Shown one piece after another: positions 6,460 through 8,579 of a DNA stretch of 9,606 nucleotides. The notes beneath the pieces were generated by a model that made no database searches, had not been told where the DNA came from, and saw nothing but the letters and a program-made list of their open reading frames with translations. The stretch's first letter is position 1. Each line of letters begins with the position of its first letter. This DNA comes from a virus (Duplodnaviria > Heunggongvirae > Uroviricota > Caudoviricetes). The DNA lies in IMG/VR virus record IMGVR_UViG_2541047901_000004, positions 1 through 9,606 of that record. The stretch is one strand, 5' to 3'. The position numbers were made by a program, and so were the translations under genes.

Positions 6460-6666
6460 GTGAGTTGTATTAATGACCTGAACACGGGCGATATCAGGGG
6501 TGGTTCCGTTCATCTGGATGCGCAGACCGTTATGCGCCTTAAGCAGTACAGGATCGACCATATAAATCATCATCCTGACAAACCATTACCAGGTGTGGCG
6601 CAGATTGTCAGACATGCCGTAAACACCTGGCTTAATCAGAATGGTTTTGCATCGGTGGGGGAATAA
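6460..6666 (+). CDS. Hypothetical small protein (GTG start), first gene of the capsid module
   Basis: 68-aa ORF starting at GTG with strong SD AAGAGGAAG 5 nt upstream. Its stop TAA overlaps the next ATG (TAATG at 6664-6668). No confident motif. Confidence 0.5.
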   Translation: MSCINDLNTGDIRGGSVHLDAQTVMRLKQYRIDHINHHPDKPLPGVAQIVRHAVNTWLNQNGFASVGE

Positions 6667-8579
6667 TGAATCGCTGGTACACCATTAAGGCGGCGGATGT
6701 TCGCGGAGCGGCGGATATATCTATCTATGAGGAGATTGGCGGCTTCGGTGTTACTGCAAAGCAGTTCGCGGAAGACCTGAAAGCCCTTGGCGATGTTTCA
6801 CATATCAATCTGAGGATCCATTCACCAGGTGGTGATGTGTTTGAAGGCATCGCCATCTATAACCTGTTACGGAATCATCCGGCAGACATTACGGTTTATA
6901 TCGATGGTGTTGCGGCTTCAATGGCTTCGGTGGTCGCAATGGCTGGCGATCGTGTTGTGATGCCGGAGAACGCCATGATGATGATCCATAAGCCGTGGGG
7001 GATCTCTGGCGGAAATGCTGGCGATATGCGTGATTATGCTGATTTGCTGGATAAGGTGGAAACCGTGTTAATCCCTGCTTATGCCAGAAAAACGGGCAAA
7101 TCAGCACAGGAAATTACCGCCATGCTGGAGGATGAAACCTGGATGGATGGGAAAGAATGCCTTAAGCACGGTTTTGCTGATGAATTGTTGCCATCCGTCA
7201 GAGCAATGGCGCGAATTGAATCGAAACGCACAGGAGATTTTTTACATATGCCGGAAACCATTAAAGGAATGATTACACCGCCACAGGGAGCGGCAAATAT
7301 TGCTGGTAATGAACAGAAGCGCATCAATGGAATAAGTGAAGTGTTTAGCCTGTTCGGCAGTCGTTACGATGGGATCAAAATGGCGTGTCTGGAAGATGCA
7401 TCATGTACACCGGAAATGGCCCGTGAAAAGCTGTTGAACGAGCTGGGGCGCGAGTCCACGCCATCCAATAAAAATACCCCGCCTCATATCTATGCCGGAA
7501 ACGGAAACATAACAGGTGATGCAATTCGTCAGGGGCTTTATTCCCGTCTTGGGTATGAACGCCCTGAACGAGGCAACCCTTACGCGATGATGAGCCTTTT
7601 TGAAATGGCCCAGGCATCACTAACTGATCGTGGTATCAGTGTTGGCGGTTTTTTAAATCGCTCGCAGGTCGTTAATGCAGCTTTCACACACAGCAGCAGC
7701 GATTTTTCTCATATTCTGGCTGGTGGCGCTGAAAAATCAGTACTGAAAGGCTGGCAGGACAGCGGCGAAACGTTCCAGAAATGGACGCGTACCGGTTCGC
7801 TTTCAAACTTTCATGAAGCAAAGCGCGTTGGTCTGAATGGTTTTTCAAAGCTGGATAAAGTACCGGAAGGCGCGGAATATAAATACATCACCACCAGCGA
7901 TAAAGGTGTACCTATTGCGCTGGCCACGTACGGGAATATTTTTTCCGTTACCCGTCAGGCCATTATCAACGATGATCTGACCCAGTTAACTACAATCCCC
8001 ATGGCGATGGGACGCGCAGCTGCCAGAACAGTTGGCAATCTGGTTTATCTCCTGTTAACCAGCAACGGCAAGTTTACGGATGGTAAAGCGTTATTCCATG
8101 CCGATCATAAAAATCTTATTGCGAAGGATATGGACATGGAGGGGCTTAACGAAGCCCGTAAGCTGATGCGCCTCCAGGAAGACGCTAACGGCGATTCGCT
8201 GAATATTACCCCCGCATTTGTCCTGGTCCCCGCCGCGCTGGAGTCTGCCGCACATCGCGCCATTCTGTCATCGTCATCACTCTTTCCGGTTGATGGCGTG
8301 GGCACTATCAATCAGAACCCCGGCATCATTAACGCGGTGAAAGATATGGCGGAGGTAATCGTTGAGCCACGTCTTGATAAAGCCAATAACAAGGAGTGGT
8401 ATGTGGCAGCGGCGAAGGGTATGGACACGATAGAGGTCGCTTATCTTGATGGTATTGATACGCCATATCTTGAGGAGCAGGAGGGATTTACTGTTGATGG
8501 CGTCGCCTGGAAGGTGCGCATAGATGCAGGTGTCGCGGCCCTCGACTATCGCGGATTACTGAAATCGAGTGGAGCATGA
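6666..8579 (+). CDS. Fusion protein: ClpP-like (S14-type) prohead serine protease N-terminal domain plus putative HK97-fold major capsid protein C-terminal region
   Basis: 637 aa. N-terminal ~175 aa aligns to ClpP conserved blocks: IHSPGGDVFEGIAIYNLL ; GVAASMASVV with candidate catalytic Ser at codon 6918-6920 ; MMMIHKPWG with His at 6987-6989 ; TWMDGKE with Asp at 7146-7148. The C-terminal ~400 aa is a capsid-sized domain with no stop between it and the protease; the capsid assignment is inferred from size and context, not from a recognised motif. Confidence 0.75.
   Translation: MNRWYTIKAADVRGAADISIYEEIGGFGVTAKQFAEDLKALGDVSHINLRIHSPGGDVFEGIAIYNLLRNHPADITVYIDGVAASMASVVAMAGDRVVMPENAMMMIHKPWGISGGNAGDMRDYADLLDKVETVLIPAYARKTGKSAQEITAMLEDETWMDGKECLKHGFADELLPSVRAMARIESKRTGDFLHMPETIKGMITPPQGAANIAGNEQKRINGISEVFSLFGSRYDGIKMACLEDASCTPEMAREKLLNELGRESTPSNKNTPPHIYAGNGNITGDAIRQGLYSRLGYERPERGNPYAMMSLFEMAQASLTDRGISVGGFLNRSQVVNAAFTHSSSDFSHILAGGAEKSVLKGWQDSGETFQKWTRTGSLSNFHEAKRVGLNGFSKLDKVPEGAEYKYITTSDKGVPIALATYGNIFSVTRQAIINDDLTQLTTIPMAMGRAAARTVGNLVYLLLTSNGKFTDGKALFHADHKNLIAKDMDMEGLNEARKLMRLQEDANGDSLNITPAFVLVPAALESAAHRAILSSSSLFPVDGVGTINQNPGIINAVKDMAEVIVEPRLDKANNKEWYVAAAKGMDTIEVAYLDGIDTPYLEEQEGFTVDGVAWKVRIDAGVAALDYRGLLKSSGA

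Follow-up and report, generated by a model that had tools for sequence, protein, structure and literature searches.

A ClpP-like protease–scaffold–capsid fusion gene in a cassette-swapped variant of the phage-inducible chromosomal island EcCIIHE3034

Why would a satellite that carries neither a portal nor a large terminase gene encode a capsid precursor with its own protease and scaffold? The question is raised by a stretch of 9,606 nucleotides filed as a Caudoviricetes virus (IMG/VR record IMGVR_UViG_2541047901_000004, positions 1 to 9,606; the window in what follows), in which a first-pass annotation, made from the sequence alone, described a single 637-amino-acid (aa) open reading frame (ORF) that joins a ClpP-like prohead protease to a probable major capsid protein. 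The answer that we favor, with a probability of roughly 0.75, is that a member of a phage family of such fusions sits in a phage-inducible chromosomal island (PICI) with the backbone of EcCIIHE3034, that the late cassette of this island was exchanged for one from the head family of phage mEp460, and that the fusion works by a helper-dependent mechanism.

The ORF is as the first-pass annotation drew it, running from 6666 to 8579 on the plus strand, with an ATG start, 637 aa and no internal stop. Pfam profiles assign CLP_protease to aa 31–175 (E = 1.6e-35) and Phage_capsid_4 (PF25209) to aa 336–634 (E = 1.8e-53), with a weaker match to Mu-like_gpT (PF10124; E = 3.7e-9), and the protease and capsid domains thus lie in one uninterrupted polypeptide. 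The protein scores 904.4 bits against the NCBIfam model NF045540 (scaf_prot_MCP1; 'ClpP-like prohead protease/major capsid protein fusion protein'), for which the curated cutoff is 475, and is accordingly a member of that family; against the sister model NF045541 it scores 370, below the cutoff of 525. PHROG 133 and PHROG 4523, described as 'head maturation protease' and 'major head and protease protein', match over the full length, and the RefSeq entry for the protein is correctly named as a protease/capsid fusion. As an intact and ordinary representative of the protease–scaffold–capsid fusion family, the ORF has the protease, linker or scaffold, and capsid in one chain as first proposed, and its homology to that family bears out the further proposal of a putative self-processing capsid precursor.

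The first-pass assignment of the C-terminal region to a capsid had rested on size and context, and was accompanied by a suggestion to use Foldseek and AlphaFold. A phmmer search of the PDB with the whole fusion protein returned ClpP chains only, and the PDB match lists were taken up by ClpP and crotonase chains, so the C-terminal domain was probed by other routes. A profile of this domain alone, made from 19 diverse family members, matched the solved capsid chains 8rkc/8rkx (E ~ 1e-9), whose title is 'Bacteriophage Mu GpT domain-containing protein', and 9jod ('Major capsid protein'; E = 1.5e-8). An AlphaFold2 (AF2) model from the single sequence had a predicted local distance difference test score (pLDDT) of 36.5 and was set aside for one built on an alignment of 89 sequences, with homologues at 40–94% identity. 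The alignment-based model has a pLDDT of 81.4 and is confident in both terminal domains; its low-confidence stretches are residues 204–212, 264–279, and 383–413, the first two of which are linker loops. When this model was compared by Foldseek with the BFVD database, the matches included stand-alone phage major capsid proteins (E = 2.5e-16 with TMt 0.71, 6.3e-15, and 8.4e-13) as well as phage ClpP proteases. The domain therefore belongs to a capsid profile with solved relatives and has a predicted fold that matches HK97-type capsids, and the agreement of the Pfam, sequence-to-PDB, and fold evidence confirms the capsid assignment.

At the N-terminus, the Ser, His, and Asp that had been read as a ClpP triad correspond to Ser85 (AAS85MAS), His108 (MIH108KPW), and Asp172 (FAD172EL), and all three candidate catalytic residues line up with those of the catalytic motifs of ClpP in PDB chains. 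When the query and 141 diverse family representatives at 50% identity were aligned with MAFFT (142 sequences), the Ser85 position is conserved in 139 and the His108 position in 140, but Asp occupies position 172 in only 103, with Thr in 27. The conserved core is thus the Ser-His pair, which together with the ClpP fold places the domain among proteases of the ClpP (S14) type. About a quarter of the representatives have Thr, His, or Asn instead of Asp at this third ClpP-equivalent position.

An exhaustive search of representative proteins identified 7,259 clusters at E ≤ 1e-30; the best 150 of the 7,259 representatives all have E ≤ 1e-94, and nearly all of these are 600–800 aa long. Full-length homologues with 52–57% identity occur in 77 phage records, and the carriers include the lambdoid phages mEp460, mEp043, mEp213, cdtI, Tritos, and Ayreon, several Stx1 and Stx2 phages (the Stx2-phage homologues are named 'protease/scaffold protein'), and Pseudomonas JBD68-like phages, with further matches at E ≤ 1e-40 in Rhodobacter and Bordetella phage records. 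In mEp460, the head module is ordered small terminase (TerS), large terminase (TerL; GpA type), gpW-like adaptor, portal, fusion, decoration protein, and tail, and nothing apart from the fusion is annotated in that module as a major capsid protein; a Citrobacter prophage has the identical head-gene order. The fusion is the single head-shell gene of lambdoid phages of the mEp460/cdtI/Gifsy-2 type, and likewise the only capsid gene of mEp043-type phages, of some Stx phages, and of Pseudomonas JBD68-like phages. Among 5,426 complete E. coli genomes, 1,579 (~29%) contain a gene that has the fusion product name and matches the query at least partly, and 195 contain the island-type allele at full length. 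The interest that the first-pass annotation attached to the fusion itself is not sustained by these numbers: this architecture is already known as a curated and common type of phage gene, and as a gene it matters little, being curated, named in RefSeq, and the normal capsid gene of many cultured phages. A literature search on fused protease–capsid architecture found no specific description. Close relatives join the same capsid domain to an HK97-type S78 protease (PF04586 with PF25209; for example, our representatives P0319, P0342, P0352, P0355, P0358, and P0359), from which it follows that the protease partner was exchanged during evolution.

What distinguishes the present copy is its location. 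E. coli IrN and three other strains have a chromosomal segment 100% identical to the window, and in the full genome the element sits between cspD/yljB and clpS. Two copies of the attachment-site (att) core ATGATAGTTAT lie at positions 11813–11833 and 22426–22446 of the full chromosomal locus (L001), 10,613 bp apart, which delimits an island of ~10.6 kb. The published PICIs EcCIIHE3034 (10.5 kb) and EcCI18098 (10.8 kb) share this size, the cspD-clpS site, and the att core (Fillol-Salom et al. 2018, PMC6092414, Table S1). From the integrase onward, the gene content also follows EcCIIHE3034 (int, alpA, YlcI/YnfO, Icd-like gene, DUF4222, D5/P4-type primase, small ORF, and SSB), with 87.8% identity up to window position 6177. 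The homology stops just past the first of two cohesive-end (cos) site copies, and the late regions differ. In EcCIIHE3034 (6830–10142 of our locus L011), this region encodes, alongside a small ORF and a hypothetical protein, a capsid protein of the lambda E type (351 aa), a decoration protein of the gpD type, and TerS; the matching interval here (window 6178–9323) holds a small ORF, the fusion, and a DUF1441 TerS, with two mEp460-type cos copies. The element is a cassette-swapped variant of EcCIIHE3034; both islands have TerS and capsid genes in the corresponding slot, but of different types.

The element has the marks of a Gram-negative PICI, with int, alpA, and primase in one orientation, a length within ~10–15 kb, no tail or lysis genes, and an att site in common with described PICIs, as expected from the first-pass view of a satellite-like element. 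Portal and large terminase genes had been expected downstream of the window. Instead, the island continues for only ~0.84 kb beyond the last ORF to the clpS side, with no ORF longer than 116 aa; the annotation of the whole island lists neither portal nor TerL, and what lies downstream of the window leaves no space for such ORFs. This absence is one half of the condition, lack of these genes together with lack of particles, that the first-pass annotation had named as refuting its reading. The proposal that the element makes capsids independently of a helper is not supported. A capsid gene in a satellite, which had been singled out as unusual, is no oddity either, since most Gram-negative PICIs have already been reported to carry capsid genes. 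Pfam and PHROG scans of ten ORFs and the RefSeq annotation revealed no Sid/Psu/Delta-type genes, so the island is not P4-like; the primase, AlpA, and Icd-like genes are all that it has in common with P4-like satellites. The primase passes the P4-family model TIGR01613 marginally (108.9 bits against a cutoff of 108.7). Within the island, close to each end, are 73-nt imperfect direct repeats, 73% identical (L001 11912–11984 and 22293–22365; window –88 to –16 and ~690–760 bp beyond the window end), with reiterated TGTTCG and GGTGTAGTTAAT motifs. They were ruled out as att sites because the published core is another repeat further out, and they may be integrase arm-type binding sites.

The late cassette is marked by an 80-nt direct repeat whose copies are 95% identical and flank the small ORF and the fusion on both sides. 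Within it is a lambda-like cosN core, GGGCGGGAGCG(G/T)CGCGG. In 36 phage records, the stretch directly preceding terS is 80–93% identical to the repeat, and all the listed records among these are fusion-carrying phages (mEp460-type, Stx). The mEp460_4F5 record starts 4 nt ahead of the motif GGGCGGGAG..CGCGG, and the lambda left cohesive end GGGCGGCGACCTCGCGG has the same invariant GGGCGG...CGCGG frame as this mEp460-type motif. The alignment of copy 2 with the left end of mEp460-type phages extends as far as the terS start codon, which points to a cosB-like region in this copy. Only copy 2 keeps phage-like sequence up to terS; copy 1 diverges ~50 nt past the cosN-like core. In EcCICFT073 there are also two cosN copies, both of which contribute to transfer (PMC6092414). 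The fusion is 58% identical to mEp460 gp05 and colinear with it over the full length apart from a 29-aa deletion in the island linker, and shares the three-part architecture, the catalytic Ser and His, and the capsid Pfam family of the gp05 (NF045540) proteins; it differs from phage members in belonging to a diverged group, in its shorter linker, and in having no portal gene before it. As cos, TerS, and capsid gene all resemble those of mEp460, lambdoid phages of the mEp460/cdtI type are, by homology, the probable helpers. A promoter scan gave nothing above shuffle expectation, and an Rfam search of the island found nothing relevant, its only match being to the cspA thermoregulator family over the flanking cspD, below the gathering score.

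Among the contexts that we inspected in detail (three island, two phage), island-borne alleles are 71–99% identical to the query; no allele in any phage record exceeds 57.4% identity. The Klebsiella (79%) and Serratia (73%) homologues are likewise carried by islands of ~10 kb with int, (alpA), and primase, which adjoin fis and again have no portal or TerL. Their replication proteins differ, being a D5 primase or a DUF927 protein, and the presence of DUF927 in the Serratia relatives means that the replication module is exchangeable as well. Pairwise Nei–Gojobori dN/dS among the E. coli, Klebsiella, and Serratia island alleles is 0.07–0.08, at dS values of 1.9–2.9 that are saturated, which indicates strong purifying selection and runs contrary to a decaying remnant. 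The linker measures 160 aa, compared with a family median of 202 and a family minimum of 154. In the Klebsiella island (L002/L003 12186–14618), the fusion is followed, in the place of TerS, by an 810-aa protein with tape-measure domains (TMP_2, Tape_meas_lam_C), a tail-gene fragment within a ~10-kb satellite.

Most E. coli genomes match the query over 90 nt only (window 7418–7507); outside this patch, the prophage-type alleles that share it have ~58% protein identity. At third codon positions, identity to mEp460 is ~0.80 in the patch and ~0.45 elsewhere, and the fraction of identical codons among identical residues is 0.79 as opposed to 0.52, in a comparison of E. coli island and E. coli phage alleles only. 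A cis-acting RNA or DNA element and an internal translation start were ruled out as explanations because the excess is absent in the Klebsiella and Serratia island alleles. The patch is a short, E. coli-specific product of gene conversion, which shows that single cells have harbored both island and phage alleles.

How the fusion would serve the island can be outlined from these homologies. In assembly of the HK97 kind, a head protease removes an N-terminal scaffold domain after the shell has formed. HK97 itself does so with the delta-domain of gp5 and the gp4 protease, and lambda with C, Nu3, and E; the island protein resembles both in having an internal N-terminal scaffold to be removed by a head protease, but differs from HK97 in that the protease lies inside the capsid polypeptide and is of the ClpP (S14) rather than the S78 type. 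The late cassette, made up of cos copy 1, small ORF, fusion, cos copy 2, and DUF1441 terS, would derive from the mEp460-type head family. On induction of an mEp460-type helper, the island would excise and replicate, and the island TerS, with the GpA-type TerL of the helper, would recognize and cut the island cos sites. The fusion protein, alone or mixed with that of the helper, would assemble on the helper portal into a procapsid, its protease and linker on the inner side, and the Ser85/His108 protease would then remove the N-terminal ~280–335 residues by self-cleavage to leave an HK97-fold shell subunit of ~300–350 aa. Portal, TerL, adaptor, decoration protein, and tail would come from the helper. 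Protease and scaffold would be present in the island only because the capsid gene of the mEp460 family comes fused to both.

Three published observations weigh against this scheme: in EcCICFT073, which has a lambda E-type capsid gene, deletion of the capsid or the decoration gene had no effect on transfer or interference; the EcCICFT073 DNA was found in phage-sized heads; and EcCIIHE3034 and EcCI18098 were not mobilized by resident prophages (PMC6092414). By our arithmetic, four island copies amount to ~42.5 kb, or about 95% of the 44.5-kb mEp460 genome, so packaging of a multimer in normal heads is plausible. The fusion may supply shell subunits, redirect head size, or poison helper heads, and it is among these and two further possibilities that the evidence has to decide.

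It is scarcely credible that the island is self-sufficient in making and filling heads and takes nothing but tails from a helper, as capsid-forming PICIs (cf-PICIs) do. In favor of this are its capsid protein, which brings its own protease and scaffold, its TerS, and its cos sites, and like cf-PICIs of the EcCIEDL933 type the island combines int, alpA, and primase with satellite-encoded capsid and protease functions. However, cf-PICIs are ~15 kb long and are defined by their own portal, head-tail connectors, HNH, TerS, and TerL (10.1101/2022.09.08.507074), and the portal, connectors, HNH, and TerL are absent from the att-bounded 10.6 kb and from the homologous Klebsiella and Serratia islands. 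A very small probability attaches to the view that the fusion is functionless cargo, the decaying remnant of a captured set of prophage late genes. The cassette swap does imply recent acquisition, and PICI capsid genes have been reported to be dispensable for transfer (PMC10111431). Yet the ORF is intact in 195 complete E. coli genomes and in the Klebsiella and Serratia islands, the catalytic Ser and His have not been lost, the small ORF that overlaps its start is likewise conserved, and the low dN/dS at saturated dS disfavors decay.

Redirection of capsid size is a more serious alternative, although we consider it unlikely: the island allele, with its shortened linker, would build small heads on the helper portal and so exclude helper DNA, as a one-gene counterpart of SaPIbov5 Ccm. 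A protease fusion is not known for Ccm. Size redirection is demonstrated for Ccm and hypothetical for the fusion, but the two are alike in that SaPIbov5 also lacks portal and TerL and encodes a capsid homologue related to that of its cos-type helper (cited in PMC6092414). The linker length, the 29-aa deletion relative to gp05, the separation of island from phage-record alleles in the contexts inspected, and the purifying selection on the former are all consistent with redirection, and PmCI172, which has a capsid homologue, makes small heads (PMC6092414). Against this, EcCICFT073 was packaged in full-sized heads (PMC6092414), four island copies (~42 kb) would fill an mEp460-sized head as well, and the family minimum of 154 aa means that short linkers may occur in phage-context members too. 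An interference factor, which would poison helper heads by co-assembling with their proteins or cleaving them prematurely, is doubtful. PICIs generally interfere with their helpers (PMC6092414), and an allele that is diverged from yet related to the helper type, with conserved catalytic residues, would suit such a role; but constraint over the whole capsid domain (dN/dS ~0.07) fits a structural role better, and deletion of the EcCICFT073 capsid gene did not relieve interference (PMC6092414). It is a speculative extension, and improbable as it stands, that the island alleles form a satellite-specific capsid lineage whose short scaffold gives small heads (T below 7) on a stolen portal, with a cos-capsid-terS cassette that can be swapped from one PICI backbone to another and so retargets them to other helper head families. 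If true, one gene would supply shell, scaffold, size determination, and maturation protease.

Under the helper-dependent reading that we prefer, the comparison with EcCIIHE3034 carries most of the interest. One PICI backbone at one att site is found with either a lambda-type cassette (E-like capsid, D-like decoration protein, and TerS) or an mEp460-type cassette (fusion, DUF1441 TerS, and cos), which suggests that capsid, terS, and cos together form the helper-matching module of these satellites. In the papers that we consulted, we found neither a statement that one backbone takes alternative helper-matched cos-capsid-terS cassettes nor an analysis of a fusion-type cassette; the observation is a modest, descriptive addition. 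It is puzzling that purifying selection strongly maintains a capsid gene in PICIs that have no portal, given that the only knock-outs tested (EcCICFT073) had no phenotype. The island family and an mEp460-type helper would offer a tractable system for asking why portal-less PICIs retain capsid genes. The features of the window are collected in Table 1.

Table 1 Coordinates of the fusion gene, its domains, and other island features in the 9,606-nucleotide window.
Feature	Position	Strand	Basis or remark
ClpP-like prohead protease / scaffold linker / major capsid protein fusion ORF, 637 aa	6666..8579	+	RefSeq WP_021561222.1
Protease domain, aa ~1-178	6666..7199	+	Ser85 = 6918-6920, His108 = 6987-6989, Asp172 = 7179-7181
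Linker / putative internal scaffold-like region, aa ~179-335	7200..7670	+	Mostly helical; scaffold function probable
HK97-type major capsid domain, aa ~336-637	7671..8576	+	Pfam, PDB profile, Foldseek, AF2 model
Gene-conversion patch, 90 nt, aa ~251-281	7418..7507	+	92-95% nucleotide identity to E. coli prophage-type alleles
cos-like repeat copy 1 (cosN-like GGGCGGGAGCGGCGCGG)	6068..6147	+	Directly after ssb terminator hairpin (~6052-6077)
cos-like repeat copy 2 (cosN-like GGGCGGGAGCGTCGCGG)	8604..8683	+	Directly after fusion-gene terminator hairpin (~8587-8610)
DUF1441 small terminase homologue, 161 aa from RefSeq start	8837..9322	+	65% identical to mEp460 TerS gp01
Small ORF, 68 aa	6460..6666	+	PHROG 4934 (E=7e-34, function unknown); stop overlaps fusion ATG (TAATG)
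PICI backbone	1..6035	+	88% identical to EcCIIHE3034
Integrase	1-1239	+	Pfam/PHROG/RefSeq
AlpA	~1650-1859	+	Pfam/PHROG/RefSeq
Icd-like cell-division inhibitor gene	~2581-2784		Pfam/PHROG/RefSeq
DUF4222	3010-3291	+	Pfam/PHROG/RefSeq
D5/P4-type primase	3295-5049	+	Pfam/PHROG/RefSeq
SSB	5613-6035	+	Pfam/PHROG/RefSeq
Last island ORF	9325..9606	+	PHROG 1561 (function unknown); ~76% nucleotide identity to last EcCIIHE3034 ORF

Within the backbone, RefSeq annotates a partial pseudogene at ~1840–2200, and a BRO-N domain fragment is found at the matching position of EcCIIHE3034; the YlcI/YnfO gene (~2202–2381) is on the opposite strand. The small ORF that precedes the fusion has a homologue with 41% identity before the fusion in the Klebsiella island, and the Serratia islands have a small ORF in the same position. 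RefSeq annotates a 57-aa ORF on the opposite strand (6400–6573) instead of the small ORF, whose product, judged by eye, appears to consist of a strand followed by two helices and would be ribbon-helix-helix-like.

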